DNA of 64,000 nucleotides, from assembly GCA_043805415.1 (NCBI GenBank), contig JAZDHZ010000007.1:93786-157785 (forward strand), read 5' to 3'. Below, piece after piece: positions 1,730 to 64,000 of the stretch. This stretch comes from Candidatus Omnitrophota bacterium. GTDB taxonomy: Bacteria > Omnitrophota > Gorgyraeia > B26-G9. Under the pieces are notes generated by a model. It was not told the origin of the DNA, searched no databases, and was given only the letters and a program-made list of their open reading frames with translations. A program made the translations under genes and the position numbers. Numbering within the stretch: the stretch's first letter is position 1; each line of letters opens with the position of its first letter.

Positions 1730-1760
1730 TTTCTATTTTCTTTATGTTCTTGTGTCTTGT

Positions 1761-1780: not shown

Positions 1781-1803
1781 CTACTATTCGCTATACGCTG
1801 CTT

Positions 1804-3841: not shown

Positions 3842-3865
3842 GGAACTTTGTATCCTTGCAACTAG

Positions 3866-3968: not shown

Positions 3969-4084
3969 GCTTTAAACCCGCAAAATAATTATTCTAGCCC
4001 TTTTTACTTTATCCTTTTTACTTTTTACTTCCATCTGTGTTCATCGATATTTTTTATTAGTGTTTATCACAAAAGCTTCTGCTT

Positions 4085-5125: not shown

Positions 5126-5128
5126 TAA

Positions 5129-9184: not shown

Positions 9185-9208
9185 TATTTTTTCCTTAACC
9201 TGCTCATT

Positions 9209-26447: not shown

Positions 26448-26550
26448 TTGAGCTCCTTCCCTATTTTTGTAATTAGCGGCGATCTTCGTCCTTGCTTTAA
26501 TAAACTTTACGAATATTTTCAGCAATTTTTTTGGATCAAGCCCTGCTTAA

Positions 26551-36059: not shown

Positions 36060-36856
36060 TAATAATAATTCTCCATTTTTTATTTAACGTACCTTTTCTT
36101 GATTCTGACAATGAGGCAATCGACGTTTCTTTGACACTTTTTACAAGTGATCTCAATAATAGATCACTAATTCCACATTTTTCCAATATGTACCCCATAT
36201 ACTTACGAGTCTTTATATTGGGAAACCGAGTCGCATAGTCAATAAGCGTTTTTATGTCACATTTTTTTTCTGTTACAAACCTCTCTACTATCTGGCCTGC
36301 GGCAAAAAAACCGCCTACCGGCTTATTAAAATAAATAAGATCAACCAATGTTTTTTCTTTTGAACTAATGCAAACATTAACGCCTCTTATAATTTTTTTT
36401 TTCAATCCCATACATTTGAGCCCGAGACACATTTATAAACTTAAACAGAATTCCCGCAATCTTTTTTTCCTTGCTCAAGCTCGTATTAAGAACATACACT
36501 TTCTGGAATTGCTGATCTGTAAAGCTGTAATAGTTAAACATTGTAGAATATCCAATATAGTAATCCCCCTTAGGAAAATAAATTGATGGTATTATAAACT
36601 CACTAATACGGCGTCCTGTAGGAACTGATTCAAGAGGAACAAATATATATATGCCGCTTTTAATAGGAATTAAAATATTTTTTGTTTTTAACCTGAATAC
36701 AAGTTGTCTTCTATAAGAAAAATCAGCAGGCAAAAAAGCATCCAACTCTTTTGCTGTTACGATCTCTTTTTTTTCATAGACAAGCCGCGCGATAAGTTCT
36801 GTCTCTGTTTGACTAAGCGAACTAAATGTTTTTTTATTTGGCATATGTACCCCCAC
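36043..36856 (-). pseudogene. abiEi: AbiEi-family antitoxin, split into two ORFs by a +1 nt expansion in an A10 homopolymer
   Basis: ORFs 36377..36856 and 36043..36432 together are the length of a typical AbiEi. They join at plus T-run 36393-36402. Removing one A gives the continuous ...AQMYGIEKKIIRGVNVCISSKEKTLVDL.... This could be a real frameshift or a homopolymer sequencing error. Confidence 0.65.
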
Positions 36857-37539: not shown

Positions 37540-37899
37540 CTAATTTATATTTAATAATTTACCCAGATATTCATTAACCAACTGTTTATCCTGGTCGTCT
37601 TTCCACCAGGAAAAACTAACTCCGGTTCGATACATTCCAGCATCTTCGGTTATCCACTCCACCTTACCGAAAACCCGGATTGTACTAATATCCTTGCTCA
37701 GGCGCAAGTCAATGCTTAACGGCGTGCCAATCGGTATTCTTTCATTGGAAACCACTCCCGCGCCAACCATGCTGATATCGCGCATGGAATATTCTGCGCT
37801 GTTCCAAAACCTGAACCATACCTGAGGGTCAAGCGGGCGAAGACTTATTGAACTGTTCTTAGCTTCCTTGCGTGCGCTATTGCGTCTATCCTTATCCAT
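37540..37899 (-). CDS. Stand-alone PilZ domain protein immediately downstream of the giant ORF
   Basis: RxxxR (R-NSA-R) and DISMVGAG (DxSxxG). AAGGAG RBS ~9 nt upstream of the ATG at 37899. Paralog of 12626..13009. Confidence 0.75.
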   Translation of the reverse strand: MDKDRRNSARKEAKNSSISLRPLDPQVWFRFWNSAEYSMRDISMVGAGVVSNERIPIGTPLSIDLRLSKDISTIRVFGKVEWITEDAGMYRTGVSFSWWKDDQDKQLVNEYLGKLLNIN

Positions 37900-38024: not shown

Positions 38025-41000
38025 TTAAATCGCATTATTAACAAGCTCTCTGGTATCTTCCGGTGATAACTTCTTATCGACACCAGGGATTGCAGCATCC
38101 AAAGCATCTACAGTTGCCGGATCAGCCTCAGGCTTAATTATCATTTCTGGGGTTAAGTCAATTATCTCTTCCCCTTCTTTAGCATCAGGCTTACCGTCTT
38201 TTACCATATCAGTAGGCTCAGTTACTTCTTCCTCTGAAGCCTGGATTTCTGCCGGTGCCGGAGAGATAGCTTCATCGTTTATTGATGATGTTTCATTTTT
38301 AAGAGTATAAGTTAACAATTCTGCCTTGGCTAAAATACCTGTTAAAGTGCGGATTGCCTTTTCAATGCCTTGTTGTTCCCAATATTGTGTTAACCTGTAA
38401 GAATCTTCACGGAATTTTTCGATTTGTTTACCTGCATACTCCATAATATCCTGAGGAGTATTTAGTTTTTTTCTATCTCCCCCATCAAAAATAATATGCA
38501 TACTATCATAGTATCCAATTCTGTCTGATAACTCACCCCACATAAAATATATTTCTTGGTTAAGCGCTTCTATTTTCTGCTCCAGACTTTGCTCGGGCTT
38601 TGTTTCCTCAGAAGAAACCTCAGCAGCTTGTTCTGTAGCATCAGCTGGCTCCACATTTTGATCTGCGCTTACTGCGGAATCTGTTTCATCTGTATTATAA
38701 CTTGTATCAGTTACCGCAGCAGGCAGATTATTTCCACCATTTTGATCCTGCGGACCATTAGGTGGCTTACTATCAGTAGATGATTGACCTTGGCTAGCAG
38801 CAGCTTCTTGGGCTTTAGCCTGCTCAGCTTTCTCTTTATCCTCTTGTTGTTTTCTAATCTTAGTATCTTCCGCTTCACCAAGTTTCTTAATTTCAGTCTG
38901 TATGGCGATACCTAATTTATTATCCACGTCTTTTTTAATCTGCACAGAATTACGCTTTGCAGCAAACATCATATCTTTTGCTGCCTGATCATCTCCTGCC
39001 AAATCCTTATAGCTTTCTTTAACTTCGTCCGGCATAATTGCCCACAAAGAATCTTTAAGCAGTTTTTCATTACTTTCCTTGCTTATTAAATTATACATTT
39101 GCAATGCCGTTTCGCTATTTTTGCTGATCAGCTCCTGGGCGATCTTGGCTGGTTTTGCGCCTTCTCTGTATTCTTCAATCTGCGCTCCATCTACATTCTC
39201 AAAGGTCAGGATTTCATCCTCTGCCTCTACCTGCATCCAGAAAACTATTTTATTAAATAAATAAAGTTTTGCCTGATCTTTATTAAATGCTTGCACAAAA
39301 CCATTTGGAATCATATCCTGAGCAGTCATCAAAGCCAGCAGATCTTCAACTACTTTTTCTTTCGCATCCAAAGCATCATTCCGCGCGCCTCTTATACCTG
39401 TTCTATTCTGTGCAATAAAATCATTTACCGCACTAGTGATAAGAAATTTTCCGTCATAGACTTTACCAAATTGACCAAGATAAACATTTTCAAAATATTC
39501 TTGCATGAGTTTTAAGAGCGATGCTTTTGGATTTTCCTCCTTATTCAAAACATACTTAATATAAGGATCTACGCCAACAGCATTCCAGATCAAATCAATA
39601 TTATCCGGCACCTGCATAGCCAGAATTAATGATTCCATGTTATTTAAAACTAATGCAGGGATATTATCCTGTTTAATATCATTAATCAGATATTTCATGA
39701 GCTGATTCGCAATAATCTCTTTCTGATTGTCTTGATATTTCTCTATTATAGTATTCTGTTTACTTGAGATTGCCTGCTTTAAATTAGTTATTTCATCTTC
39801 AATCGCTTTTTGACGCGAAGCATCTTCTGTTATTTTAAGCTCTTTCTCAAGAGCGCTGAGAAGCTTCATTCTCTGGTCAATTTCTTTATTTTCATTTGCT
39901 CCGGTAGTCAATACTATCATCTGAAAAACAATACGCTCAAGATCATCTCCAGCTTCATTCCATATAACCGCATACAGGTTTTCTCTTAATTTGCTAAGCG
40001 CTGTTTTGTATTTCTTCTCTATTTCTTTTTTCTCTTCATCGCTGCCTGCGGCTTTTAACTGCTTATTGAATGCCTCGTTTAATGTAATCTCCCGCGGGAT
40101 CAGTTCCTTTAACACGTTTTTGTATTTAAATACGATCATAGGCATATCAAAATCAACCACCCTTTGATATTGACTCTTTATTGTTTCATCAGTTTTTTTA
40201 TTTAATTGTTCAAGCAGGTACTTGTTTATTTCCTGTTCATCAAAATTATTAGCCATAAGCAGAAAATATACAGCTTCCTGAGGTAATTGCTGCCAAAGAG
40301 CTTTAATTGATTCCGCTTGATTAGCGATATATTCATCCTGAGATATTTTTGACCCGTCCTTATTCATGTATTGAACGCGGTTATCGATCTCTTTTTGTGT
40401 GAATGCCGATAGTTTTTCCGGTAAAACAATGTTTTCAAAAGCAAATTTATAATTATTAACAAACTGCGCATCAGCAGTAAACAGCTCTGCGAATAAGGCT
40501 TCTGCTGCCTGTTCTTGATCTATTTGATAATCATTTGACCAGAGTTTCTTTTGATCCGCGTCTAATTTGTTCCATATCTCTGTCTTTAATTTATTTTTAA
40601 GCTCTACATCTTTTTGTTTATCCGCTATATATTTACCAATATCGCTTTTAATTCCTTGATATTTCGCATCTAAAAATATCTTGCCCAGAATATCAATCTT
40701 AGACATTTGTTTCGCGGCAATCAGCGCATCTGCAGCTGCTTTTTCCAAACTAAATTTCTCTGTTGTTTCCTTCTGGATTTGAGCACTTTTCGCATCAAAT
40801 TCTTGCGCTTTATTTATTTTCCCTTCTAACTCCGCATTCCGCAAATCCTTAGATCTCTGGAAGAAATAGCTCGGACGCGGACTATAGCGCTGAATAATTC
40901 CTTCAAAAACCAAAAAGCCCAAGAGTAGACCTAATCCCGCTATAAAATTCGGCGCGAATATAAGAATAGCCAGAAACTCAATAATATAACGCGCCGGCCG

Positions 41001-44000
41001 CACCCCGGCATCCTGGGCTTTTTCCCATTTTGCTTCATCATATTCTTGAGCGCTATACTTGGGAGTCATCATCAAGCGCAATGCCGGATATAAAATTGCC
41101 AGTGTCCACAAAGGCGCCGCGAACACGATAAAAGAAGCAAAATAAGAACTGGCCACTAAGGTGGCTACGAATGCTAAACCAAAAATAATATACGGCGCCG
41201 CAAAATAATTTCTGTCAAAAAATTGGCCATCTTTAAATAGCGGGACCCCGTGGGCTTTAAGCCAAGCTTGCTTACCGCGCCACATCGGACGGATATAAAG
41301 ATTTTTAATTCCGTTGAATATTCCGGAGAAGAATGCCTGATCCCACATGCTTTGATCGCGCTCTGACTTCCAGGCATCGCGCAAGGATTGAAATTTTGTC
41401 TTGCCTCTAGACTTCCACAAAGTACTGAACACACTGCCAGCACCTTTTAAAATTCCGGATTCAACTACATAGGTAAGAATATAAGGCCCAAATAACCAGC
41501 CAATCAGCGCGAAGAAATAAAGGAACCAGGTGGAAATAAGCATAGTGGTTACCGGAACAATAAGCATTGTAATCGGCAGGAGTATGGCCGCGATCTTTGC
41601 CGGCCAGGTCGCCAGGCTCTGACGGTAATATTTATTAAAATCCTCGTTCATTGTCTTAAGCCGTACTTCTTTTTCTGTGTAAAGAAATACTGGTCTGGCA
41701 TTAACCCCTTCGGCAATTCCCTGAACCACATAATGAGGAATAAGTATATTAAAGAAAATAAAATTCTTCGCGATCCCGGACAGAGTTACCCATATCCCTT
41801 TAGCATAACTGCCTTCGGATGCAACGTGTGCCCAGTAGGCAGGAAGATTAATCGCTTCAGCAAAGACAAAGCCGACAAATACCCAGAAATAAGGGAAGAC
41901 TAAGGCTAGGAACGGATTGACTGGAGCCAAAAGCCCGGTAAGAATAAGCCCGATGGCTGTAAAGGCAACCACGCATAGAATAACCAGTGGTTTTTTCCAA
42001 TAATGCCAAGCAGAAATAACTGTTCCCCATTTTTCATTCCAAGGGATTATATTACTGCTGATAAAACGCTTAAACTGGCGCCTCATAAGAAACTCCACAC
42101 TGCCGGCAGCCCATTTTGCCAGAGGAACTAATAAATCACTGAGAGACGGCGGCATACGCCATTGGAGTTTCATATATTCCACATGTCTGGTAACCATGCC
42201 GAAAAGCATAAATAGCAAAGCGCTGATCAGATCTTCAGATACATAATCATCCTGCAGCCCTTCGTATTTATACATAAAATCTCTTCGATAAACACCCTTA
42301 CCATAATAACCCAGAGTATCCACAGTTTCCTTAATCCGCATTACCGAACTCTGCCATGCCTTTTCCGCGAGTGCCAGGGCGCGTCCGATTGAATTAAGCT
42401 TTTCCACAAAAATCGTAACTGTAGTCAAAACAATCCCTAATTTGGGATTACGGTTGAATTCTGTTAAGACACGGAACATATTCGGCGTTTCTTCATAATT
42501 AATTTCAAGATGCGTATCCATACCCCAAACAATCTCACCGCGCACATAAGGCTGGGCAACAGCAGCGTCACCATATTTGGAAAAACGGATCTGATCGCCC
42601 TCAAAATCACGAATCTGCCCCTTTGGATCTCCTTTAGCAAGCATATGCGTATATTCACCATTATAGCGCTTAAAATCAAGCAGGAGTTTTCTTACCTGCG
42701 CATCACTTATATTCAGACTCTTAATATCCTCTTCGCTCATGGTATCAAAATTAATATTCAGGAATTGATCGATTGCCGGGCCTTTACTTTTTACCAGATT
42801 ATCTGTGGCAAAAAACTGGAACTTCAAGGTTACCAAACGCTGATATTCTTTGGCGGTTTGCAGATAATAAGACAGTTCATCAGCTGTTATCTGTGCTGCC
42901 TGAACAAACAGTTCTTTTTGCCGAGTATCAAGCGCCTTACCTTGCGCATACATCTGGCTTACAGCTGCCAGCTCTTTGGCTAATAAATCCGTGGAATCAG
43001 ATTCAAAACCCAGAATTCTAAATCTATTTAATATAACATCCAGCTGTGCTTTTGTTTGCTGATAACGATTATTTTGATAAAAATGCTCCACATACTCACG
43101 GTAGCGCTGGCGCATATAATGCTGCGACTGGACCCAGCGCCAGGTTGTCGGCATGCGGTAATTTACCCAATCCTCGATCATGTGAATAATTCCGTCAAAT
43201 ACTTCTATTCCCTGAGGCTGGGTTAGTTTTGCGCGAAGCTGCGCGATCTTTACATCTAAAGCTGCTTTTTCTCTAGAGCCCGGCATTGTTGAAAATAATA
43301 CTACTAATTCTTCCAGCGCAGCCTGATCAGCTGCATTGAGTTTGCCTTTTTCTCTGGTCCAATACTTCTGCAATAGAGCTATTTGGTTTTCATATTCATC
43401 TCTAAACCGTTGCGTCAGATGGTGGAATTTTGACGCCTTTTCCCCTTTTTCTATTCGAATAACCTCATCAAGAAAATAATAGTACTTTTCTCCTCCTCCG
43501 GCTAAAATAAAGATACTGAATACCGGCAGTTTTTCAAAGCCTTCAATGCCAGGCTGGAATCTAAAATAACCAGACATAAACCTGAGCAAACGCTGATTAG
43601 CCTCTTGATTTTTCGGCCTAGACAACTTCATCCGGTCTAACTTTGCTTTTACTGCTTCAGCATCAGTCATCTCATTCGCCGTGAACAGATAATCATTTCG
43701 TTCCTGCTCACTGATCTTTGCCTGTTCAAGCAGATGATTAATCGCGTCGTTCCAGACCTCAACCCTTAATTTACCCGAGAAATCTTCGACTTTCAGCTGA
43801 TTATTATCATCAATAAAAATCTTTTCAAGCCGGCCTTTTAAGCGCTCCGAACGCCAGGTAAATATTCTTCCGGTTAAAGGCGCTATCTTCTTGCTAAAAT
43901 GCACAGTCCAGGCGATAAAAAATGCGCCGATTTCCTTGATCGAAAAATAGGTCAAAGGCAAGAACAGCAAAAACGGCAGAACAGTTATAATGGCAAAACT

Positions 44001-47000
44001 AATTCCAAATCCCAGGCCAAGAGAACTGGTAAGCGAGCTGGCCCAAAGCATTCCGTAACTTCCAACAACATAACCCATAAAAATATTATACAGCACTGTG
44101 ACAATCATTGTCTGGCGCCAAAAACGTTTGGCCTTTAATGTCTTTAAACCAGCTGGGCCTTTTTCCGTGCCTTTGGTCCAGAAACGGTCTTCTTGTCCAA
44201 AATTAAAATTAGGATTATATTCAGAATTAAATTTTTCTATTCTATCTTTATATTCAGAAGGTAATAATTTCAAAAATAAATTAAGATAATCCGGCTGAAA
44301 TACTGTTACAATAAACGCAATAATCACAATCACACTCACCAATAAAACACTTGGAAAGAATAACGAAAGCAATCCACCAATAATAATCGTCGCGACAGTT
44401 GACAAAGCTCCGATAGGGCTAGTAAATTTATTCAGCCAATTAGCAACTTTAGTATTTTTAGCAATAGTCTTATTCGCCAATGACACAAACGGAACCATGA
44501 GTTCCCCAAAGAAGGCGATCCAGCCAATTTTATACATTTTAAGATATGTTTCATTATCTTTCAGGGCTTTATTCACTGCTGGTTTAAGCTTTGTATCCAC
44601 CAAATTCTGTATAAGCTCAGACGCTTTTGCCTCAGCGTCTTTGGCTTCTTTTGGTGTTTCTTTTAGCGGCTTTTTGGGAAGCGCGCCTAGTTCTTTGCTC
44701 AGATCAATATCCAGTTCTTTGATCGGGTCCTCATAATAACGGAACAGATCATCCATATCCTCTTGCCCAAAAAGTATGGTTGGATCAGCCAGCAATCTGC
44801 CGGTTACAGTAACTTCTTTCCTTCTATATCGCTCCAGCTTGCTCTGAATCTGATCAATAATAACCCTTCTCCAGAAACCAGCATGCAAACGCATCAGACT
44901 GACAATCTCGCTTTGTTTATCAACCTTATAAAGCGCATATGATTTGCGCATCAGGTAGCGAATTAATGGTGTACGACCAGATAAAGAACTGCCTAATCCA
45001 TAAGGCTGGCGATAAGGCAGCATAAACACTCTTTCCCACAGCTTAAACCGCAAAAGATTCGGAGTTTTCTCACCTTCAAAAGCCTCACTTTTCATAGCAT
45101 TCGCTTTATCCAGACCGATTAATTCAGGTTCCTCTATCTCAAATTCCTGATCATAAGTACCGCCTTGGATTTGCCTTATTCCATAAGGATTTTTTATTAA
45201 AACAGATAAAATTTCAGCCAGGCGTTCTCTGACGATACGATCGTATTCAGCTGTAAATTCTCCACGTGTATCAATATCAGCAAAATATTTATTGAGGTAT
45301 GGACTAAAAGCCGCGTCTATGCATTCTTCAATAATATAATAATCAATTGCAGAAGGGATTCTCTCATTATTTTGCAGTTTTTGGATAAGATCGTTAATTA
45401 CAGCTTTAAATTGTTCAAGGGTTAATAATCCAAGTCCTTCTTTATCATCTAAAAGGTTTTTAACAATTGAAGCAATCGGCGGAGTAAACATCGCGTCAAA
45501 GGAATCTTTTGGTTCCGGCAGTTTATCAGACAAAACTTTATTAAGTTCTTCAATACCCTTATCCGCGGCTAAAACTATCTCCTTCAGCTCAGCTATTACC
45601 TGCAGTCTTGATTCGCCGGAACGGGGCGGGGCGCGCAAAAGATCGCCTGAGCCGAAAATTGTATTAAGTATTTTATAATCAATACCCTGCTCATTTAAGA
45701 ACTTCTTTGCCTGATCAAGAGTTGCAAATCCTTTTTTCTTAAGATCATTAGCCGGCAATTCCTGAGCAAATGCCGTTGCCGCTGATATTGCTATATCTTT
45801 GTCAACTCCGGCAGCAGTCAACATTTTCTCCAGCTCTTTTTCATTTGTTCTGTTCAGCTGCTGCAGCCTTAAATTCGCATCATCATAGAAATCAGGGATT
45901 ATATCAGCAACCACAATATTATCCAGTATACTTGCCTTGGTTTCCGGATCAACTTCTTTTTTATCAAGAAATTCACCCAGAGCAGCTTCATCCATAAAGC
46001 TTTTTTCTTTGCGTCTTTGGTATACTATTTGGCTTGCTATATATTTTGCATTGGTTTCTGCCTGCGATAAAAGTTCTTCTCTTTGAGCTTCACTCAATTT
46101 ATCATCTTGCGCGGACTGTTCTATTTTTTCCTTATCAAAGATGAGGTTTACAATCTCATCTTCGTTCATGAGATTGATATTGTTCTTGCCTTTTTTCTTT
46201 GCCTTGTCTGCCTTTTTCTTCCAGACCAAGCCAGTAATAACATTAGCACCTACTAAATAAACCGCTAAAACAATAGGAATCACCAACCATGGAAAATAAA
46301 AACTAGTAAATGGAAGTCTGACTTTATAACTAAATACCTGTACAAATTTAAACCCTAAACCTTTGGGGCCAATAGTTACTTCCCGCATTTGACTGTCTTT
46401 ATCAAGATATTTTATTTTTACTCCATCGCCCTGAAGATCATCTTTCTTTTTCTGCTCGTTTGCCTGAGCTAATAATTTCTCAAATAATTTTTCGTCTCTA
46501 AACTTCTCGCCTTCTAACTTAATATGAAACAGTTCCAGTCCGCGTTTGCCCATATTGGCAGTCTGACTGATAACATTATTCTGAAATTTATCAAAATATA
46601 GCCACCAAAGCTGACTATTGATCATCTTTTTGCCTTCAAAAGGCACTGCTTTATCAGAAAAATGCTCTTTTTGCGACAATCCCAAACTCTGATGCATGTT
46701 TGCCCCTTTAATCAGCGGGCTGCCATTGCTTAAAAGCAGTGCTTTCTGTCCGCTTAACGAGGACAACCAGGAGGACAACCAGGACGTGCTGGTTTCGCCA
46801 ACTGAATCGGTAAGCACAAATGTATATGCATTCTGGTCATGAATACTATGATGGATTTCATATGGATGCCAGTTTTTGAGCCCGGCATTAAGATTATCGA
46901 TAACTTCCTCAGGATTATGTGAAGTATCATCACGCAATGTTGCCACCAGGTTCTGGCGCTCATCAAAAACATCGATTCTCCATCTGGGATCTTCACCCAG

Positions 47001-53000: not shown

Positions 53001-56000
53001 AAAACGTTTATTTCTTTCGTGGTCAATAACCAGTTTTGTTGACCATTTGGAATGTTTATCCCAGTAAACCGTATTTCCTTTATCTTTATCCGCAAGCGGC
53101 AGCACCTTTGAACTAAGCACAGGCTTATCTTTATCCCAGCGCGGTTTTTCCAATGTGCCGGTATTTACATAGGTTTTACTTTCCTGCTCTCTGCCCCATT
53201 GGTCAAATTTAATTCTGGTAACATATTTTTCATTAAAAGTCATTACCGGCAGCTCATAATCTTTATATACTTCATAAGTTACCGCTTTAGAATCCGGATC
53301 AATAACTTTTTTAATAAGTATCGGGCTCTTTATCTTTACAACTTTTCCTTTGTTTTCTTTGCTAACTCCTGCCGGATCCTCAAGGTTTTCATCATAAGAA
53401 ACTGTTTCAGTTCTTTTCAGTTCTTTTCCTAATTCAGCATCCTTTCTCACTTCACCGGAGTTGTTAATATATACCTTGCTTTCAGACTCAAGATCATACT
53501 CATTGTATTGCATTACAACAATTTTATCTTTTGTGATTACTCGCTCAAGTAAGCCGCGTTTAAAAACCCGCATTTCCCAGTCATTAGTTCTTCCGTTTTC
53601 TTCTTCGCGTATGTATTCCCGATGGAAAGGAAATTTTAAAGTAACTGTAATATCGCGTTTTTCTCCGTTAATTTCAACTGCCTGGGAGCTTTCTTTGGGA
53701 ATATGAAATACCCAGCGGTCGCGCATAATCTTCTGCATTTGGGCAGCGTCGATCTCATCATTAGCCACCATTTGTTTTATTCTATCCAGGTAATCTCCCA
53801 ACGGGTCATAGTATTGCTTTAAACTTAATTTATCTTTTTCTATTGTCAGAGAACCAACTGATTTAAAAAAATCAAAGCAAACAGCGCTTATTTGCTGATC
53901 AGTTAAGAAACCTATTGCCAACTCCTGTTTTTGAGCAATTAATTTTTTAGCCAATAGCTGCGGATCAATAGTTTTTTCTTTCATCGCCTTAGAGACTTCG
54001 ATAAAAGCGCTTATAATTTTTGATACATTCGCGTTTGGCACTGTTTCTGATTTTACACCGGTTATTCTGGCAATGCTCTTGCGAATAGCTTCTCTCTTGC
54101 CGGAGGCTATTTCTAAAAGCCTTCCAGATTTTAAATCAGTAATAATCGCTCCGCCTTCATCTAAAGTTTTGTATTGCTCCGCGGCGTTCGCCTGCTCATT
54201 TTCTCTTTTTTCTCTTGAAACTTCTATTGCCTTAGCCGGGGCGATTAAAGTAACTGTAATTAGAGAATTGTCCTTAGCATTAAGATATTGATATACACCC
54301 TTGAATATATCCACGCTGATAAGCTTATCCGGCCCATATCCAGCAGCCTGCTGTTTTAAGCTAATAACCTGTTCTTTAGCTTGCGCGAGCTTAAGCTGTT
54401 CATCAGAACTCAGCTTTCCTGCTTTGCTTTTAAGTTCAAGCCCTATGATTTCCTGGTTTAATTCTTTAACCTGGTCTTCTAAATATTTCTTTTCAGAAAG
54501 AAAACTAAGCTTTACCCACCCTTTGTAATAAGGATGCGCTGCTTTTTTATCTTCCAGTTCTTTCTTTTCGCTGTCGCTTAGTTCTTCCCCGCGGGATTTT
54601 TTCTTTAAAAGCACAATAATTCTATCCAGGGTTTTTTCATCCGCGCTTGATGCTGTGAATGTCGTACCTTTAGTGTACTGGATGATCATTTCATTGATCT
54701 GCTGTTTTGCTGAACTTAAATTTTTCTCATCTTCTTTTGTCCAGGCAGCGGGATCAATCTTTTTCCTGGACTGGAGTAAATCAATTTTTAGCTTCTGATC
54801 AATAATCGAACTGTCAAACCCTTTTCCGCTGCTGATTCCCAAAGGAACCACGGGAATGCTTTCCGCCCTGCGGATATCAAAAGGATTAACATCGCTCATT
54901 GCCAATAAAATCCATAAAGAGTTCATACTGGCCAGGGAAACTGTATGAAAATTGCTATCCTTATATCTCTGGATCTGACCGTTTACCGCGTCCTTAGGCA
55001 AGGTGCTGTCCGGGAAAAATACCCCTAATTCAGTCCGAACCTCTAAAGGCTGGAGATTTAAGAGCAGGGTTTCTGATTTTTTCCTCTGCTCCTGGGCAAG
55101 TCCTTCCTGAAACATAGCTGTATAGAAATTTGCCATTATCTTGTGCGCTTTAGCTACATGCGCGGTCATTTCCGGGGATACTACTTCCAAGCGGCCGCCG
55201 AGGCCGGGTTTATCTGTATAGCCATAACCGGAAACCTCAACAACTTTACCCTTGTTATAATGCTTTGCTTTTATTACCTTGCGCTTTTCAAGAGAGCTCA
55301 TTATTTTTTCCGCGGAGTCTTGGCCAAAAACATAAGCATTGTCTTTATTACGTAAATTATTCAGGATTTCCGGCCCCAGCACAATAACCGCCAGAGCATT
55401 GACATCTGTCGCGTAAATATCGTCTTTTTCCCAACGCGGCTTATCCTTATCAGTTGAAGTATTCCGCATACCGCGGGAGAAAAATCCCTCTTCTTTGTTG
55501 TACACACTCGGCAGCCAGTTTAATATTTTTTCCGCCGCGTCTTTATAATCATCATTACCGGTTAAATCATAAAGCATCATGAACACGCCGAACGCGTTTA
55601 TGTTTTCTTCTGTTGATTTGCTGTCAAGCTGCGTAGGCCCTTGGCGAATGCCGCCGTCTTCATCCTGTAATTTAATCAGGAACGCGCCAAGCTTTTCCGC
55701 TAATTTCAAAGCATCTTTTCCTTTATTATCCAGTGATTCGCGGAATTCAGAAACTCCTGAAGAAGAAAACCATCCCGAATCTCCTCTTCCTTTAAATATT
55801 TGGTCTGCTTTTCCTTCTCTGCGGAAATCAGCAAGCGCTTTTGTCACCTTTTCTTTTTGGCGATCAAGTACTGCCTGCCATTTTCCCGCGGGAGCATGAC
55901 GCATTAAGTTTTTAATCAGCATCGCGGCTAGCCAGTTACTGCTGCCGGCATTATAACGGAATTCCGCGATCGGTTTTTTTGCTTCTGTAAGCAGCTGAGA

Positions 56001-59000
56001 CGGGTCAATCGCGTTGCAGACTGCTCCGTTAAAACCATCTTTTTCTCCCTCGCGGAACAACCAGGCGTTATTGAGAAAATAATCCATCCATTTATCAGCG
56101 TGGTCGTTTAAGCCGGCTCCAGACAATACCATGGATCTAAGCGCCAGATCATAAGTAAATGCCATGTTAACACTATTAGTGTCCACAGCTGAATCATATA
56201 AATGGCTGATCGGGATCCCAGTCAAAGGATGTTTAAAATTCAATGTCCCGGAAAGCATGTCCCCAGGTAATTTCTGCGCCCAGATTAACGGAGCAACCGA
56301 TTGGTTTTGCTGCTGATACCTTGAAAGCATTGATTCAAGCACAATCCCGCCGTCATAACCTTTTTTAACAATCCGGCCGCCGCCCTTATCCATTAACATC
56401 ATATACTGGTCAAAAAGGCGTACGTCTACTTCAAGTTTTTGCAGCTTGCTCTTGTAGCCTTCGTCTCCTAAAAATACAATGCCTCCGGTTTTCGCGTTTA
56501 GATAATACACGCGCCGTACTGGCTGTTCATTGTCTCCTTCGGATACTACCTCTCCGATTGGAAGTAATTTCAGTTGTTCAAATTCAGTTTGGGTGTATGT
56601 TGTTACCTTATCCATCCACCATTTTTTACTAAACGGATTCGCGCTGCTTTCCATCTCAAAGGCAAATGAACCGGATGATTTAATAAACGCTTGGGTATTT
56701 TTAAGATCAAACCAGGTCATTACCGGCAATCCGAGAAAAGAAATTCCAAAAGCGCGTCTGCGCGGAATTTCCGGCGCATAGTCAGATACCTTGGGTATTT
56801 TTAGTATTCTCAGCAGGGCTTTCGCGTCAAAAGTAATCCCGACAAAGTTAGCATAGTTTGTCAAGGTATTTCCCCAGCCTTCACGAAACGCCATCATATT
56901 CACTCCGGCGCCAAGCGCGTCGTTTCCGGTAATCGCGCCGATTACTGCCATTACATTTACTTCTCCGGTTAAACTAAAATAGCGGCTGGCTAAAATATTC
57001 CGAAAAGCATTTCCTTTTTGATTAAAAGATTCATGATTCAAACGCGCCAGGTTATCCAGGATTCCTAAGCTGAACACGGTAATGGCATAATTCCTTTGCC
57101 CCTGGACATAAGCAACAAAGCTTTTACTGGCTTCATCATCCATAGCCATGGTAAGCCAAAGATTAAGGTCGGATTTTTTATTAGCTTTTTGCTCTTCAAC
57201 ATACTTGCGGAATTGCTCGTCGGTTATAGTTAGGTTTCCGCCTGAGTCTTCCCGAGTAACTTTATCCAGTCCTTTTTCAGTTCTATTCTTTCCCGGCCCT
57301 TTGGAGAAAAACAGATAACTGGAAATAAAAGTTTCCACGGTATTCTTGCTTGGCGGACCCATCATTTTCGCGCCGCTCGGCATTTCCCAGGCAGTAAAAA
57401 GCATATCATATATTAAACGCATGCCTGCTTGCGCGAAAGGTTTGGACAGCGTCGCAATAATGTTGCCGCCGATACCCAATCCGCCCAGGACATTAAGCGG
57501 CAGCATTGCCGTTTCAAATATCATACTGCGTTTTAGTTTCTTAACGGTTTTGTGGGCGTCTCTGACCGCGATCTTGTGCATTAAAGTGCCGATAGAGACA
57601 TTAAGGATTTCTTTATTTATCGCGTTTTTGCCAAACTTGATCACATCACTTTGCGACCAGTCGCCTTTTGCTTCTTTTTCCGGATTGGTTTCCAGAACAA
57701 TTACATCATGGTCAGATCTGGCATTGACTTCCACCAGCTTTGCCTGGCGGTTATAGCTGAGAAAACGCATTCTTCTCTGCTGAAGCTGACCTTGCTCATC
57801 CTTATAAAAATAATAAACATTATCAAAGCCTTTGCTCTTTTGTGCCTGCTGCCATACTTCTAAAAGTTTTTGTTTTTTTTCAGGAGTCAATTTAGATTGT
57901 TCTAATATTTTTTGAAAGTTGGATTCAAATTCAAGAAAACGCGACTCTTTATGTTTTTGCTTTTTGAAGAACTCTGTCCAAGAAGTATCATCACCAAATA
58001 TTTGCGTTATAGCTGCCTTGAGAATAGAGCCATCATTTAGTTCTAACAACGATAATTCCTTGATTAGCTCCTCTTGACCTTTATACTTTTCTCTTATCTG
58101 ATTATTATATGTTTTTATGTAATTCTGATTCAGGTTGTCACTTTGAATATAATCTTTAACCTTAACCGAACTGCCTTCTTCCTGCTCGAAAATTGCCGCG
58201 ATATACGGACTTTGCTTCATCAGCGGATTTTTGGGAACATTGCCGGCAGCATTAAACACTCTGGCTTTTGTACCAAAGGGTTCTACCCCGGATTCATTCA
58301 GCATGTCAATTTTGTTTTTCTGCGCTTCAATATCCAGGTTGCCTAAGATATTACCCACAACTTCAACATCCAATGCCCTTGATAATCCATAGCTTTTTAC
58401 TCCGGCAAGTAATTTATCTGAGGCAAATTTGCCGTAATTCAAACGATAGGCATACTTACCGCCGGCATCCTCGCCTTCAATCCAGATATCCGGATAATTT
58501 CCTGTCTCCTGATACTCCGCGATTTCTTTCGGACGGGTTAATCTTTCTCCGCGTCCGAACTGATCTCTTTCTTCAAACTGTTTTGGGAATTTATAAAAAC
58601 GCAGCAAATGCTGGACATTACTGATATCCACCACAGAATCAAAAACAAGTTCTTTGCCTTGGCTAACCGGAATGTATGGCTGGGCTCCTTTTGCGCCTTT
58701 TTTGCCAATCCATATTTCAATGTTTTTAACATTAGAAATAGTATTATTATCCACATCCTGTTTGATTAATTCATAAAGAGTGCCTTTTTCATCATTGGAA
58801 GGAATTTCTTTATTTGTTCCTTTAACATAAAAATAAATGTTTTTCTGCTCTTTTAATTCTCCCTGCAATATAGGATTTTCCGCGATCGCGAAACGTCCTA
58901 CTTTTTCTACATTAATCAAAAGTTGGACGATTGCCTTGGCAAGGCCGCGTTCGTAATTGCGCTCCGGAGTTAAAGCAGTGGGAGAATATATTTTTCCAGG

Positions 59001-62000
59001 AGTTACTTTATCCATCAGCTCTTGGATTCGACTCGCGAACTTATCATCTGATTTAGCGGATATCACAGGAACAGCCGCTGGAGCTGCTCTTAAATTTTTT
59101 TGCTTTGGCGGTAATGGAGGAGGGCCTATTTTTTTACCGCTGTCTATGCCAGGATTCTCGCGTGCCTGCGGCGTCATTAACGCGGCAACATCTTTGTCAA
59201 TATTTAGTGTTAATTCCTTACCGATTACTATCAGCGATCCTTTGATCTTTGAATCTGGATGCTGATTATTATAAATTTCCCGCAATTTTATCCAAAGACT
59301 GGCACTGCCGAATAATTTCTGGGCCAAGCCTCTAAGTGTATCACCCTTTTCAACCACATGTTTCCACTGTTTTTGCTGGAACTCACCAGACTTGGCTTCA
59401 GGAGTAGAAACAGCTAATTGCTTTGCTTCAGGAGTTGATGTATCTAAAGAAACAACTAATTGCTTTGCTTCGGGAGTCAGTAACGCCGCGATTTCTTCAT
59501 TAATGGTTAAAATAAGGCTTTTTCCTAAAATAATCGTTGTGTCTTTGATGGGATTTTCCGGATGCTGCCGGTTGTAAATTTCTTTAAACTTTATCCGAAG
59601 ATCTTGATTGCCGAAAAATTTTTGGGCAATTTTAGAAAGAGTATCGCCTAACTTTACCTCGTGAATTATTCTCTTGCCAACTATGCCATTTACTTGTACA
59701 TTTAACTCTGCGGACTTTGTTCTTTCTTGGTTTTCTCCCTCTACTCCCCCGGCATCAGTCACTACTACTTCTTTTTTAGATATTTTTGCTTTAGCAAAAG
59801 GCCCCACAGGTGCTTGCTTATCGCTTTTTATCGTGGTTGGAGCGGTTTTGGCCAGGGCCTGAGCACGCTTCTCTTCGCTGTAATTAGCGAGCTGATGAAG
59901 ATTCGCGCCAAAAACTTTTTCCGGGTCATTAGCTTCAATGTTAAGAAAGTCCTGATAATTTTGTTCCTGATTTTTATGATTAATCTTTTTATCTGATTCG
60001 CGCATTTCAAAATGCAGATGGTCATTTATCAGATCCGCGGCATTGCCAGTCTTTCCTACCCTGGCAATCGGCGTATTCCAATTAACTTTATCCCCGATCT
60101 TTACCAGATTTTCACTATTATGCGCGGCTGTCGCATAAAAATACGTCTTACCGCCTTTGCTATTACTTACTTCGTGCCTGACAATAACCAGATTCCCATA
60201 ACCCGTACCTTCTCCGGCAAAAATAACCTCACCAGGCGCTACCGCATAGGCAATCTGGTGACTTTCTTCCCCTGTCTTGCCTGCTATCTGCGGCATATTA
60301 AAGTCAAACCCCTTGTGCTCGCGCGCACCCTTTCCTCTGGGAGCTCCGAACCCGGATACCGGGGTGGTTGTATATTTGCATTTTATCGGCAAACGGAACT
60401 GCTGCAGGAACTGCTCTAAAGGCGTGGCACTGACAATTCCCGCTAATATGTCTATTTCCGGAGTTTTGATATTAAGAGGCTGCTGCTGAGTATTGATTGA
60501 AGCCAACATAAGATCAGGCTTCATTGCCTGAGCAGCTAGGTCAGTATAATGCGCTTTGATTGCTTCCGGCAGGTTTTCTTCAAGTTTTACATTAGCAGTA
60601 TTATACGGCTTTTGCGCGTTTTGGCTATCTGATGCTGCTGCTAAAGTCGGCACAGAAGCAAGCATACTTGCTCCCATAAACGGCATAATCGAAACCTGTA
60701 AAGCTTTGGTAAGTTTTTCCGGATTTGTGGCAATACCCAATAATCTATTTAATCCCACCTTAGCCAGATTAAGCTCAACCAATAAAGCAGTGACTGCTTT
60801 TCTAAAAGCAGGACGCTGCTGAGCAGTTAAAGCCTCAGCAGGAATCTTGGCAACCATATGCTTTATTTCAGCGCTGGAGAAAAAACTGCCGTCATTGGGG
60901 CTGGAATTCTGTACCGCGGTAAGAAAAGTCCGCAGCATTTTGTCTTTTTCCGCCATGCCGTTCAGCAGATTATAAGCTAAATCAGTGGGATTGTGGGAAC
61001 TTGCTACCTCTTGTTTAAACTGATTAATAACTATACCGATATTATCGGAAAAGTCACTAAGTCCCACATTATTCAGCTGAGACTGTATCCCGGAAAAGTT
61101 TTTTAGTTTATGTTTAGCCAAAGACGAATAGTCTGTAGGGGTTTTTGAAATTTTTGATATAAACCGCTTGGAAATAAAAGTAAAACCGCCGGCCAAAGCA
61201 ATAAGCGGCAGCAGAGCAATTAACTTTGCCCCTAATATCGGAACTCCTACGGTAATCAGCGGAGCAATCCATCCGCCGACAAATAATAAGGCTAATCCCA
61301 TAATCGAACCAGTAGTAATCATAACCATTCGGGATTGAAGCGCGGAAGCGCGAGCCATTGACATAAGCGTAAATATTGTTTGCTTAGATTTTTTTGCTTT
61401 GCCGTCAAATCCAACTTCCTGCCTAGCAATTTTCCGCGCGGTAGAATATTGCGCTTTAAAAAACATTATCCCTTGTAAAGAAAATAAGCCGGTAACTAAA
61501 AGTCCAACCGCCTGAAGCAGGCTGCTGCCCTGCATCACTCCGGTACTCATAGCAATTCTAATTGAATCAAATACCTGAACTCCCAGAAGCGGAACAATGC
61601 CTAAAACAATCGCCGCGCTGGCAGCGATTCCGGCAACAAATCCCAGCAAAGGAACCCAGCCTTTAACCGCGATATTATCACTGCTGCGGGCAAATATTTT
61701 TCTGGCGATCAGCATACTCACCGCGATCGCGGACATGCCGGCAATAACCGGCAAACTAAAACTTCCGCTGGCAACAAAACCAAAAGCATACAGACCTAAA
61801 GTAACTAAAGAACCAAAAATTCCACCTTGGAAAAATCTTTTCGCGCTAGTCATCGGCAGCATGGGAGCGGATTTTAAATCTTTACGGCTGGTAAACAGCA
61901 AGAGAGTTGATGAGATTACCCCGACAACCCCCAATACTGCTGATGCCAGCAATACTGTACTTCCAATACTCCCGGTAATAAGCGTTGCTGAACCAATATA

Positions 62001-64000
62001 GGAAAAAAGCGTCATTGCCGCGACAAAAGGAGCAAAAGAAGCAGTTGTGGTAAGTGTTTTTCGCCAAGCAGTTAATCCTACTGTTTTTCCAATATCTTTT
62101 AAAGACTGCCGATGACCAATAGCAATCGCATCAGCCATTTTAGTGATCGTAGAATCAACTTGCGATAATCTTTTTACTTGGGAATTAAGCGCCCAGCCAA
62201 TCATTACTGCCCCGATAGTCACCGCCACCAAAACAACCGGGCCTAAACCAAGAAACAAACTAACCGCGCTGCCAATAACCGGCAAACCAACCGCGCTGCC
62301 GACACCGCCGATACTTAGAGCTTTAAATACCACCCCGATTAAAACAGCAAGCGCGATATTTGCCGAGATCGCGACTGAAGCAGGAATTATCTTTACAGCT
62401 AATAATTTCACGCGTTCTGAAAAAGGAATTCGATTAATTTTCGCGGCTTCTGCTTGAGCTTGATTCATCTCTCCATCTGTCGGAGCTTGCTGAGCAAGCT
62501 GAAAAGCAAGCCCAATAACATTTTTACCCAGATCATTTGCTGTATCTTGTTTCGTCTGTTCAAAAGCAGCCGCTGTTATCCGCTTGATTTCCGCGTAAAT
62601 CATCTGCGGCCTTATAAACTGTTTCTGATATCCGGAACGTGAAGATATTTTCTCTAATCTATGTTTTTTCCATTCAGATTCACTTAAAAACCGCATCCAT
62701 TTCTGATCAACAATTTCTAAAGCGCGGTTTTTAAGAATATCTTCTATAATCGCGAACAAAGCTTTTTCCAGATTGTAATCAGCAGCTTCCAAAGCGCTAT
62801 TTATTGTTTGGGCTTCTATATTACTTAATCCAAAGTCATTGTTTAAAATTTCATTTATGATTAATTCATATTGAATTTCCTGTCCAAGATCAACTCTATC
62901 ACTAATCGCCTGAGCGATTTTTTCCTTGATTGATTCAATAACATTTCGCGGGATGCCCAGCGCCGTTAAATCCCCAGTAACTATGTTTCTTCTAAACATT
63001 ACATGCTCTCTGGCAAATCCTTGACCTTTGCCCGCGCCGCTGGCCTCTTGCCACAAGAACTCACCAAAAGATTTTTGTTCTTTCTCCATGTTCTGTTTAC
63101 TATCATTAATACTTTTTCGAATTGCCGAAACAACCTTCTGGCTCTGATTAGCTGACTTAGGATCATTAGTCATGATAAACGTATGCGGCTTACCAACACT
63201 AACCTTGCTGGTTAAATAAGCTAATTTCTCGGAAATAAGCTCTTTATAATTTAAAAAATCTTCCGGCGACCAGAACCCAAAAAAGAAACCTTCTCTGCCA
63301 TCTCGTCCGCTGCGGCCTCTTAACTGAATATCTGTTTCTTCAGAGGCATCGGCACTTAATGACATAACCACCATTTTATCGCCTTTAAAATCAACTCCGC
63401 GTCCGGATATATTAGTGGATACAATAATTACTTTACTATTTTTAGAAAGCTCTTCGACCTTGTCTTTTAACATTTTTGTATCTGAAGTGGCTTCATGATT
63501 TTTAGAAACAAATTCAATAATAACATTGTCCACAGCATTATCCGCGATCAGCGAATCCAAATCATCCAAAGTCACATTTTCAATTTCATTGCCTTTTGCA
63601 TCAGTAATCTTTCCCTCCTGAGTAATCCGCGCGATATTCCGCCGCGCCATGGCCGGTTTAGCCAAAAGTTTATCCGTAAAACTTGCTACCTGATTTTCAT
63701 CATCACAGCGGACAAGTACAGCTCCGGCTTGTTCAGGAAGTCCCCAATCAGACATTTTCCTTGTCGCGCTTTGATCTGTCTTTAGAACAACTATCGCGTC
63801 AATCGCGTTTCCGATTGACTCTTCTTGATCAGAACTCAGAATAATCTGTTCTTTTCTTTTTGAAACCTTATCTAATCCGCTAAGATCTTTAAACTCTAAT
63901 CCATAATTATCAGCTGTCTTCTGTCCAATGGTAGCAGAAGCAGCGCTAATTCCGGAAACAAGCCCCAAATTATCACTCAAAATTACCGGCAAAATCATCG
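38025..64000 (-). CDS. Giant multi-domain membrane protein, 5'-partial (at least 8,657 codons in the window; N-terminus lies beyond the window end)
   Basis: A single open frame from the window edge to TAA (plus 38025-38027). The frame is open at 63998-64000 and the first recognisable domain is only the second half of a SecA-type motor, so the listed Met (MILPV) is not the true start. Domains are listed as separate sub-features. Confidence 0.85.
   Translation of the reverse strand, partial: [8657 protein letters not shown]
40880..42050 (-). other. Giant ORF: hydrophobic block following the GT48-like core
   Basis: [146 protein letters not shown]. The arrangement (TM block / GT core / TM block) mirrors Fks1 topology. 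Confidence 0.55.
42050..43640 (-). other. Giant ORF domain: divergent GT48 (Fks1 / callose synthase, 1,3-beta-glucan synthase)-like cytoplasmic core
   Basis: Collinear motif matches to yeast Fks1 as I recall it. P6795[12 protein letters not shown] vs [35 protein letters not shown] vs [33 protein letters not shown] vs RKFKFLVSM. KGDPKGQ...R7153[28 protein letters not shown] vs [47 protein letters not shown] vs LHYGHPDF. VS-E7255[20 protein letters not shown] vs [23 protein letters not shown]. The Fks1 QCGKGRD motif is not conserved (KLQWRMP). Confidence 0.6.
43895..44535 (-). other. Giant ORF: hydrophobic block preceding the GT48-like core
   Basis: [101 protein letters not shown]. Confidence 0.55.
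46900..53650 (-). other. Giant ORF: ~2,200-aa region of degenerate YD/RHS-like repeat modules
   Basis: A recurrent module: Y.D..GN.LV.M......L.W(Q/E)(E/Q)(L/I/V).D..GR.I..Y.G......F......F.Y ... G..(A/M).(G/S)(E/A)TY(L/I)(Y/F)D. Examples: [113 protein letters not shown]. Confidence 0.5.
54875..56175 (-). other. Giant ORF domain: alpha/alpha-toroid-like (glycoside-hydrolase- or prenyltransferase-repeat-like) domain, paralogous to 16279..~17350
   Basis: [12 protein letters not shown]..., [12 protein letters not shown] (QW-motif-like), [49 protein letters not shown]. It is collinear with the C-terminal domain of the 650-aa PilZ protein. Confidence 0.55.
59199..59663 (-). other. Giant ORF domains: two LysM-like peptidoglycan-binding repeats joined by a TPEAKQL micro-repeat linker
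   Basis: LysM1 (59502-59663): [19 protein letters not shown]...[26 protein letters not shown]. LysM2 (59199-59366): [19 protein letters not shown]...[26 protein letters not shown]. Linker: [29 protein letters not shown]. Confidence 0.7.
59990..60370 (-). other. Giant ORF domain: M23 (LytM-type) metallopeptidase
   Basis: HxxxD motif H-KGF-D (His at aa 1228, nt 60315-60317). '[10 protein letters not shown]' core. HxH motif DHLHFEM (nt ~60003-60023). Confidence 0.8.
61150..62420 (-). other. Giant ORF: first hydrophobic block (roughly a dozen predicted TM segments, not formally computed)
   Basis: aa ~527-950 are dominated by long G/A/V/L/I runs, e.g. [78 protein letters not shown]. Confidence 0.6.
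63204..63998 (-). other. Giant ORF domain: divergent SecA-type motor, NBD2/helicase-C-like half
   Basis: aa 195-204 [10 protein letters not shown] vs the SecA motif [10 protein letters not shown]. aa 225-237 [13 protein letters not shown] vs SecA [13 protein letters not shown]. The following [10 protein letters not shown] matches SecA SRFYLSLED. Confidence 0.7.

Follow-up and report, generated by a model that had tools for sequence, protein, structure and literature searches.

A predicted SecA-headed giant protein of Candidatus Omnitrophota with murein-peptidase, repeat-array and FKS/BcsA-type synthase modules

Results

A Single Reading Frame of More Than 26 kb

We analyzed a 64,000-nucleotide stretch of a Candidatus Omnitrophota genome (hereafter "the window," meaning this whole stretch; contig JAZDHZ010000007.1 of assembly GCA_043805415.1, positions 93,786 to 157,785 of the forward strand), in which one giant open reading frame (ORF) fills the last 26 kb. 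All large ORFs of the window lie on the minus strand. The original prediction, made from the letters alone, had described a stop-free minus-strand frame of more than 26 kb (>8,657 codons) running off the window edge, and frame, stop, and chance estimate all agree with it: the frame is open from 63998 to 38028 and closes with a TAA at 38025-38027. At the random-frame stop frequency of 7% given by the base composition, the probability of meeting no stop over 8,657 codons is ~1e-275; the remaining two minus-strand frames over the same stretch hold 560 and 983 stops. The features of the giant ORF are listed below, with amino acids (aa) counted from the window edge (63998) and not from the true start of the protein; TM stands for transmembrane, NBD for nucleotide-binding domain, and GH for glycoside hydrolase.

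38025-63998, minus strand: giant ORF of 8,657 codons and a TAA stop, its 5' end lying beyond the window (frame scan and collinear relatives L003 and P0003/L010)
62499-63998, minus strand: second half of a SecA-like motor (aa 1-500), NBD2 and a helical segment, together at aa ~170-500 (Pfam, NCBIfam)
61188-62408, minus strand: hydrophobic block 1 (aa 531-937), ~10-11 TM helices, hairpins with basic loops between them (hydrophobicity and positive-inside count)
59979-60320, minus strand: M23 metallopeptidase domain (aa 1227-1340; Pfam)
59196-59855, minus strand: two LysM-like units (aa 1382-1601; Pfam and internal duplication)
54879-57011, minus strand: (alpha/alpha)6-toroid-like, GH76/GH88-like region (aa ~2330-3040; borderline GH76)
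48729-53081, minus strand: array of ~9 divergent units (aa 3640-5090), each with beta-hairpins and paired helices (piecewise self-BLAST, cross-matches to P0003)
46221-46316, minus strand: single TM helix (aa 5895-5926), then a lysine-rich stretch (hydrophobicity)
44364-46220, minus strand: presynthase segment (aa 5927-6545), predicted to be cytosolic (shared with proteins that carry the synthase module)
40899-44363, minus strand: FKS/BcsA-type processive glycan synthase module (aa 6546-7700; profile, model, and Foldseek)
42231-42236, minus strand: codons of the catalytic ED motif (E7255, D7256; alignment conservation)
38028-40898, minus strand: C-terminal tail (aa 7701-8657), acidic toward its end (composition; no family match)

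The GC content by codon position is equal across six blocks of 1,500 codons (GC1 ~0.5, GC2 ~0.3-0.39), and Tandem Repeats Finder returns a single trivial 26-nt repeat. Relatives of the gene were sought by scanning one genome per species, which gave seven loci (L003-L009). The best of them, L003 (JAHITE010000094.1, a 58,959-bp contig of a Candidatus Omnitrophota metagenome-assembled genome [MAG]), is collinear with the giant ORF; identity is 60% in aa 1-1967 and 49% in aa 2047-4757, the comparison covering 16.8 kb of L003. An exhaustive search of representative proteins with the synthase region led to P0003 (MCG2711356.1, Candidatus Omnitrophota; contig JAKLQT010000079.1, our locus L010), which is truncated at its 5' end by the contig edge and collinear over aa 3659-7976 at 48-56% identity (67% in the glycosyltransferase [GT] region), with a similar C-terminal peptide. 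With an identity of only 47% between them, L003 and P0003 come from different species; together they cover aa 1-7976, with a mutual overlap of ~1,100 aa. Three further contigs from Joint Genome Institute (JGI) metagenomes (L011-L013) keep the order of a toroid piece, aa 5633-5915, aa 6124-6434, and the synthase at 27-36% identity.

Because the same order recurs in independent assemblies of other species, a chimera or the loss of stops between neighboring genes is unlikely. The chimeric join about which the original prediction had been cautious finds no sign in the sequence data: independent Omnitrophota contigs are collinear, the frame has no internal stop, and there are no repeats of a kind to mislead an assembler. 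By these comparisons the giant ORF is a single genuine gene, carried by a member of Omnitrophota. The proposed assignment to this phylum is supported by the labels of its closest relatives, Candidatus Omnitrophota or Omnitrophica in every case (JAHITE010000094.1, JBDRPX010000003.1, JAQULA010000205.1, JAHIOQ010000008.1, and MCG2711356.1).

The first methionine of the frame within the window had been judged too late to be the start, as the relatives confirm. When the first 1,000 aa were used to query a word index, P0001 and P0002, both partial proteins of Omnitrophica, matched over the full query at 38-39% identity; P0002 has the true start and a SecA_DEAD/SecA_PP_bind region, its residue 609 corresponding to window residue 1. 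In L003 the corresponding residue is 578, and the SecA_DEAD domain (NBD1) lies upstream of it in both L003 and P0002. Relatives thus reach 550-620 aa further upstream, with SecA_DEAD and PP_bind. Because the frames of relatives are open for 550-624 aa before window residue 1 (577 in L003, 550 in L004, and 624 in L007), the full protein probably measures ~9,200-9,300 aa, and the window probably holds the 3' 94% of a gene of ~9,200 codons.

A Conserved SecA-Like Head Precedes Variable Sequence

The second half of a SecA-type motor and the hydrophobic block that follows it had both been recognized by eye, and both stand. Matches to Pfam Helicase_C (5e-7) and P-loop_SecA (0.0026) and to the NCBIfam SecA model NF006630 (9.3e-8, model positions 477-778 of 789) cover the first, with NBD1 just upstream in relatives; the helical segment after NBD2 matches the C-terminal part of SecA models. 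NBD2 reads "STNISGRGVDF" and "QLRGRSGRDG," which we take to be the motif V and motif VI signatures of SecA/DEAD proteins. Membership in the true SecA preprotein translocases is rejected, since the score of 30.6 bits compares with a full-length equivalog cut-off of 862; the domain is SecA-like, not SecA. The hydrophobic block adds ~10 TM helices, and the whole giant ORF has 30 hydrophobic windows, or ~20-22 helices in four blocks.

The head (aa 1-1160, i.e., the SecA-like domain and the first TM block) is 39-75% identical in all seven loci, whereas beyond it only L003 still resembles the giant ORF; L004, L006, and L007 diverge fully and L008 almost fully. A head that is kept while the downstream sequence differs in all loci but L003 points to a conserved module on variable cargo.

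Two side observations concern this head. The heads of the L004, L006, L007, and L008 giant ORFs are 41-55% identical and are followed by unrelated sequence, and some of these loci belong to MAGs labeled Planctomycetia, PVC group, or Clostridia; either these are mis-binned Omnitrophota contigs or the head module moves between lineages. Furthermore, in all relatives with a true N terminus the giant ORF opens, ahead of the SecA-like ATPase, with a conserved segment that resembles a signal peptide or an anchor (L003 1786-1900; L004 8366-8480; L009 3701-3815); its basic residues are followed by WFR..A..IIQAFL..DI.WAAGGDL.W. Such a segment in front of an ATP-driven motor is topologically puzzling.

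An FKS/BcsA-Type Synthase Module Lies Near the C Terminus

Following the repeats, the original prediction had placed a single TM helix and then a GT48-like core between TM blocks. The helix is found at aa 5895-5926, and the core is sustained at the level of the superfamily, the sequence itself staying under the GT48 and GT2 thresholds. The module runs from a TM pair (aa 6546-6564 and 6656-6680) through a cytosolic helical domain and a GT-A catalytic domain to ~7 TM helices, and it keeps D7161, E7255-D7256, and K7293-W7294. In the own sequence, Glyco_trans_2_3 matches at 1.4e-4, below its cut-off, and PF02364 (Glucan_synthase) has no match at E<=0.01; direct phmmer searches of PDB sequences gave nothing useful for the GT region and no match for aa 4301-8657.

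The family tells more. Exhaustive search of the representatives with the synthase region yielded 100 matches, 61 of them below 1e-10; among 32 aligned homologs, Pfam Glucan_synthase is found in 10 (best 2.3e-50) and Glyco_trans_2_3 in 18. A profile of the family matches BcsA in the PDB at 3.7e-31 and GSC2/FKS1 at 2e-29 to 1e-28. In an AlphaFold2 (AF2) model of the module (predicted local distance difference test [pLDDT] 75.7, core >85) the helices are present, and the best seven Foldseek matches to it are FKS1/FKS2 (1.2e-12 to 1.3e-8, ~1,100-1,300 aligned columns), followed by BcsA and by hyaluronan, cellulose, and chitin synthases. The acidic pair E7255-D7256 is the only invariant one in one family alignment and is conserved at >=90% in another; it is equivalent to the essential ED motif of Fks1, E1221/D1222 (PMC12715860).

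From profile and model we place the module within the FKS/BcsA superfamily, on the FKS side. It shares with Fks1-type glucan synthases a GT-A domain between TM bundles, the ED motif, and the best structural match, and it differs from FKS1/FKS2 in its low identity (12-14%), in having far fewer TM helices and no Rho1-type regulator, in a DAN motif changed to D-T-H, and in being embedded in a bacterial giant protein. A GT48-type segment may lie in its N-terminal part, as judged by eye against the Fks1 sequence. With BcsA (GT2; PDB 4hg6 and 4p00) it shares a profile match as strong as that to FKS and the build of a processive synthase that forms a membrane channel itself; a link to cyclic di-GMP (c-di-GMP) and PilZ is plausible here too. 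In contrast to BcsA, PilZ is encoded by a separate downstream gene instead of forming a C-terminal domain, and QxxRW is changed to K-W; the window contains no BcsB, BcsC, or BcsZ partner. Membership in BcsA itself was rejected, with DTH in place of DxD, no QxxRW, and PilZ in a gene apart. Since the BcsA profile match is strong and the motifs fail, the relation is one of superfamily only.

The presynthase segment co-occurs with the GT module in P0003, P0006, P0011, P0065, and L011-L013. The GT48-like module itself recurs in ~100 representative clusters, many of them predicted proteins of 5,000-7,800 aa from uncultured prokaryotes and one from an Elusimicrobiota MAG. Among the matches, a 961-aa partial protein labeled Candidatus Njordarchaeales archaeon (Asgard; P0017, MHA1676782.1) has the synthase core, with Pfam Glucan_synthase at 8e-29. 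This protein may either bear on how eukaryotic GT48 arose or reflect wrong binning.

A Peptidase, LysM Units, and a Toroid-Like Region Follow the Head

The M23 and LysM domains named in the original prediction score above their Pfam cut-offs. The M23 domain matches PF01551 at 3e-17 and 63 bits (cut-off 28.7) and has a complete catalytic set (H1228xxxD1232, the "AAHN" His at aa ~1290, and H1327xH1329), with DipM, ActS, NlpD, and MepM as best NCBIfam matches and TagE, EnvC, and LytM as PDB matches; in the L003 ortholog the first His of HxH is lost. LysM (PF01476) matches at 5.5e-7 and 29.9 bits (cut-off 20.9), partially, over profile positions 1-23 of 43, and the second unit is revealed by an internal duplication (aa 1382-1500 against aa 1491-1601, 36% identity, E=2e-14). 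The M23 fold with HxxxD, HxH, and an additional His is that of the LytM, MepM, DipM, and NlpD family, in which DipM and NlpD likewise have LysM adjacent, the difference being that M23 is here one domain of a giant multipass membrane protein. No match to aa ~1600-2300 was found in Pfam, NCBIfam, or PDB profile searches, and a search of the PDB with aa 1600-2350 together with L003 gave an UNC-45 match at noise level only.

An alpha/alpha-toroid had been proposed farther along. Its homologs sustain it, with GH76 (best 1.7e-6) and GH88 (best 3.8e-4) in all three aligned, but the score of the giant ORF itself is borderline (GH76 at aa ~2763-2856, 9.1e-6, 25.8 bits against 25.9). GH76 alpha-1,6-mannanases in the PDB match the region at E=0.017, and the region is common to L008, L011, and several representatives. 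An (alpha/alpha)6 toroid at aa ~2330-3040 is likely.

A Strand/Helix Repeat Array Resembles RHS/YD Shells Locally

The ~2,200 aa of YD-like repeats in the original prediction proved to be an RHS/YD-like strand-helix array with a detectable length of ~1,450 aa and without a global RHS-cocoon match. Its motifs are Y.D..GN.L...L.W...DN.GR...Y.G...F.Y.Y and G..G.TY.YD, and a word-index search with the repeat region returned one protein only (P0103). With a model of the array, built on effectively three sequences, the top 16 Foldseek matches all belong to the RHS/YD-shell group (the Tc toxin TcB-TcC, type VI secretion system [T6SS] Rhs effectors, and teneurins), whose strip of antiparallel beta-hairpins with YD-like motifs is similar; no global match to an RHS cocoon was obtained, and the likeness is local. 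Membership in the RHS/YD shells was rejected, as we found neither the RHS_repeat Pfam family nor a closed beta-cocoon with plug and autoprotease. Altogether, the original prediction had left its domains to depend on significant hidden Markov model (HMM) or structural matches, and these were obtained for the SecA-like, M23, LysM, YD-like, and GT48-like parts and, at borderline strength, for the toroid.

The Tail Is the Most Variable Part of the Gene

The acidic tail of ~950 aa, also foreseen, carries a net charge of ~-41 over its last 400 aa. Its similarity to the tail of P0003 is patchy, the last ~10 residues being alike. The P0003/L010 tail (residues ~4400-6193) is ~1,100 aa longer, which makes the tail the most variable part of the gene. 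It also has a weak His_Phos_1 match, to which the 6,193-aa P0003 owes its NCBI name "histidine phosphatase family protein."

Neighboring Genes

Downstream of the giant ORF the window contains the following genes.

37540-37899, minus strand: stand-alone PilZ gene, 119 aa, 125 nt past the giant ORF stop (Pfam PilZ, 8.9e-10)
35160-36856, minus strand: AbiEii nucleotidyltransferase toxin gene (Pfam, 3.3e-28) with two small ORFs upstream of it, the set lying between the PilZ and HEAT-repeat genes
Downstream, after AbiEii, minus strand: 1,191-aa HEAT protein
26830-31098, minus strand: 1,422-aa ORF without Pfam match
25008-26525, minus strand: MFS_2/GPH sugar transporter (Pfam, 3e-61)
23063-24955 and 20150-21439, minus strand: two GH2_C-type TIM-barrel hydrolases (Pfam)
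Downstream of the GH2_C-type hydrolases, minus strand: PKD/TPR protein
16279-18231, minus strand: 650-aa protein with a PilZ domain at its N terminus only
13937-16240, minus strand: 767-aa ORF without Pfam match
13263-13937, minus strand: ORF with a prepilin-type N-methylation motif, pseudopilin-like (Pfam N_methyl, 3.3e-7)
Farther downstream, minus strand, in order: PilZ, GT4, amine oxidase, ABC-2 and ABC genes, and four radical-SAM/SPASM genes

The stand-alone PilZ gene has both PilZ motifs (RxxxR as RRNSAR and DxSxxG as DISMVG) and a ribosome-binding site, AAAGGAG. At L011 19361-20545, the giant ORF is likewise followed by a PilZ-like ORF (RRSKR, NVSYEG) and then by a lipoprotein resembling solute-binding proteins, in place of which the window has the MFS_2 transporter further down. 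Three PilZ-containing genes occur within 26 kb and point to extensive regulation of the region by c-di-GMP.

The original prediction had compared the setting with that of published Omnitrophota giant genes. The sugar transporter, GH2-type hydrolases, and PilZ gene downstream agree with this, but the link to a type II secretion system (T2SS) is weak: the window, which ends within the giant ORF and does not reach its upstream side, contains no GspD, GspE, or GspF, its sole T2SS- or type IV pilus (T4P)-type element being the N_methyl ORF, 24 kb from the giant ORF. Nor is there a T2SS Pfam match 3-10 kb upstream of L003, L004, L006, or L007.

Two other sets of genes stand apart. Upstream of AbiEii are two small overlapping ORFs without match, among which the antitoxin may be found. 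At the far end of the window, four tandem radical-SAM ORFs on the minus strand, two of them with SPASM (722-5125), lie beside a 1,351-aa ABC ATPase fusion and an ABC-2 permease (5129-9988), and the set looks like a peptide-maturation/export or sugar-modification cluster.

Discussion

A Known Protein Class with a New Domain Combination

Giant proteins of this class have been described by West-Roberts et al. 2023 (bioRxiv 10.1101/2023.11.21.568195; "Archaeovorin-type"), Seymour 2023 (PMC10066038), and Nielsen & Lui 2026 (bioRxiv 10.64898/2026.06.07.730766). At ~9,200-9,300 aa, the present protein is below the length cut-offs of both catalogs (>30,000 aa, or >90 kb, in West-Roberts 2023 and >=10,000 aa in Nielsen & Lui 2026), just under the lower one. 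It shares with the SecA-headed giants of Omnitrophota the host phylum, the many TM helices, and a divergent SecA DEAD/preprotein-binding domain near the N terminus; a glycosyltransferase, glycoside-hydrolase-like, and peptidase content; PilZ directly downstream; and GH2-type hydrolases and a sugar transporter nearby. Its array agrees with the antiparallel beta structure of ~1,500 aa, partly RHS-like, that West-Roberts 2023 call an "antiparallel beta-helix with exterior paired helices." Published descriptions place pilZ downstream of most giant genes, whatever their domain content, GH2 flanks were reported by Nielsen & Lui 2026, and a T2SS/T4P-like locus upstream (GspD/E/F, RcpC, and rotamase) is a published feature of the Omnitrophota giants.

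The protein differs from the described giants in having no HEAT, methyltransferase, NUDIX, GT5/GT1, or dockerin domains and in having M23, LysM, and an FKS/BcsA-type synthase. Furthermore, its SecA-like part appears to keep the C-terminal helical segment, whereas West-Roberts 2023 report the loss of the scaffold and wing domains. The main texts of West-Roberts 2023 and Nielsen & Lui 2026 make no mention of a glucan or cellulose synthase, M23, or LysM, and none of the papers searched combines "Omnitrophota" with "glucan synthase." The protein class is already known and this domain combination is not described, in keeping with the original statement that it could be assigned to no characterized system.

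A Possible Mechanism

We are confident of the identity and architecture of the protein as given above. We also think it rather probable, as an overall statement, that this is an inner-membrane-anchored multidomain protein of ~9,200 aa belonging to the SecA-headed giant class and working broadly as follows; the functional account taken by itself is tentative, and we would put it somewhat short of an even chance. The SecA-like head, held by its TM block, would drive or assist the export of the protein's own middle segment of ~4,950 aa (aa ~940-5894), an exporter role for the giant's own chain that was suggested by West-Roberts 2023 (bioRxiv 10.1101/2023.11.21.568195). This segment would then lie outside the cytoplasmic membrane as a contact arm, on which LysM would bind murein, M23 would cut peptide cross-links, the toroid would bind or cleave glycan, and the beta-array would serve as a rigid spacer or tube. 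The TM helix at aa 5895-5926 would return the chain to the inside, where the synthase would polymerize a beta-glucan-type chain from nucleotide sugar and, in the manner of Fks1 and BcsA, pass it out by a channel of its own; the neighboring PilZ protein might gate this activity in trans in response to c-di-GMP. In this way the bacterium might attach to a host or prey cell and breach that cell's wall locally, with a secreted polymer acting as glue or coat, the released sugars being taken up with the help of the GH2-type hydrolases and MFS_2 transporter encoded downstream.

The proposed topology is built on the synthase. Its GT domain must face the cytoplasm, since the substrates are nucleotide sugars; if aa 6546-6564 and 6656-6680 form a hairpin and aa 5895-5926 a single helix, aa 5927-6545 would be cytosolic and aa ~940-5894 across the membrane, a placement that fits the M23 and LysM domains, which make sense outside.

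Several observations weigh against this picture or parts of it. No relative carrying both ends of the gene in one record was seen. The positive-inside count of the first TM block favors an even number of helices and gives contradictory answers, and the signal-peptide-like segment before the SecA-like domain in relatives could shift the placement of the domains. The GH76 score of the giant ORF's own sequence stays below the Pfam threshold, as does its synthase region for both GT48 and GT2. At the DxD/DAN position the sequence reads D7161-T-H (DAN, DAD, or DSD in homologs), and QxxRW is reduced to K7293-W7294 (LAKWAAG), with SED present, so that activity and sugar specificity are uncertain. As PilZ follows giant genes regardless of their domain content, a specific link between PilZ and the synthase is speculative. 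Finally, an HMM of the head matches none of the 100 proteins with the GT module, and the linkage of head and synthase can therefore not be claimed beyond this lineage.

Alternative Explanations

The same parts could instead serve the producer's own envelope, with M23 and LysM acting on its own murein in the way that DipM, NlpD, or MepM does in growth and division, the synthase making its own exopolysaccharide coat, and the array forming a structural surface layer. We consider this unlikely. In its favor, the M23 domain finds its best NCBIfam matches among housekeeping enzymes or their activators (DipM, ActS, NlpD, and MepM), Omnitrophota retain intact peptidoglycan biosynthesis according to Nielsen & Lui 2026, and the usual product of BcsA-type synthases is the producer's own matrix (PMC12715860). 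However, wall growth does not obviously need a fusion of 9,000 aa with an RHS-like array of 1,450 aa, and the GH2-type hydrolases and sugar importer nearby fit harvesting instead. In addition, peptides of the V. archaeovorus giant are 3-fold more abundant in cells attached to larger cells (PMC10066038), which speaks for the contact arm over an envelope builder.

It is improbable, in our estimate, that the chain is a polyprotein cut into an independent head, lytic arm, tube, and synthase, so that the fusion would carry no mechanistic meaning; the scheme does not exclude the export and contact mechanism proposed above. Cleavage of giant proteins by C39 or S8 peptidase domains was raised by West-Roberts 2023, and the modules do recombine elsewhere, the head occurring with other cargo and the synthase in many proteins. 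Yet Pfam and NCBIfam find no domain of the C39, S8, or RHS aspartyl-protease type in the window ORF or in the N-terminal parts of its relatives, and the module order is kept in L003, in L010, and partly in L011.

A misassembly, or neighboring genes fused through lost stops or chimeric joins, is scarcely credible: the window is probably metagenomic and its exact proteins are without match in the protein collection, but set against this are the stop-free length (~1e-275) with its uniform codon-position signature, the lack of nucleotide repeats able to mislead an assembler, the collinearity of independent contigs from other species over aa 1-4757 and aa 3659-7976 with their overlap of ~1,100 aa, and the order of toroid, pre-GT segment, and GT module kept in L011-L013.

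Implications

Almost nothing in the giant proteins of Omnitrophota has a testable biochemical function. The protein described here offers three tractable enzymatic handles: its M23 domain is intact, its toroid may be GH-like, and its FKS/BcsA-type synthase has a PilZ gene nearby. Because of these handles, its small size for the class (~9 kaa), and its collinear orthologs, it could be a practical model for the function of giant proteins, and the pattern of a conserved head on variable cargo provides a concrete hypothesis for how such proteins cross the membrane.

GT48 is usually regarded as eukaryotic, and the recurrence of the GT48-like module suggests an unrecognized prokaryotic branch of the glucan-synthase superfamily. 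A bolder proposal, which we regard as distinctly unlikely, is that a prokaryotic lineage of FKS/GT48-like beta-glucan synthases is widespread in giant envelope proteins of Omnitrophota, Elusimicrobiota, and related uncultured bacteria, with a homolog in the Asgard-labeled contig, and is here joined in one chain to a motor for self-export and to a contact arm that lyses murein, so that one polypeptide would breach a neighbor's wall and extrude glucan under c-di-GMP/PilZ control. If true, the protein would represent a novel kind of envelope machine that depends on contact and would bear on the origin of the eukaryotic callose and glucan synthases.

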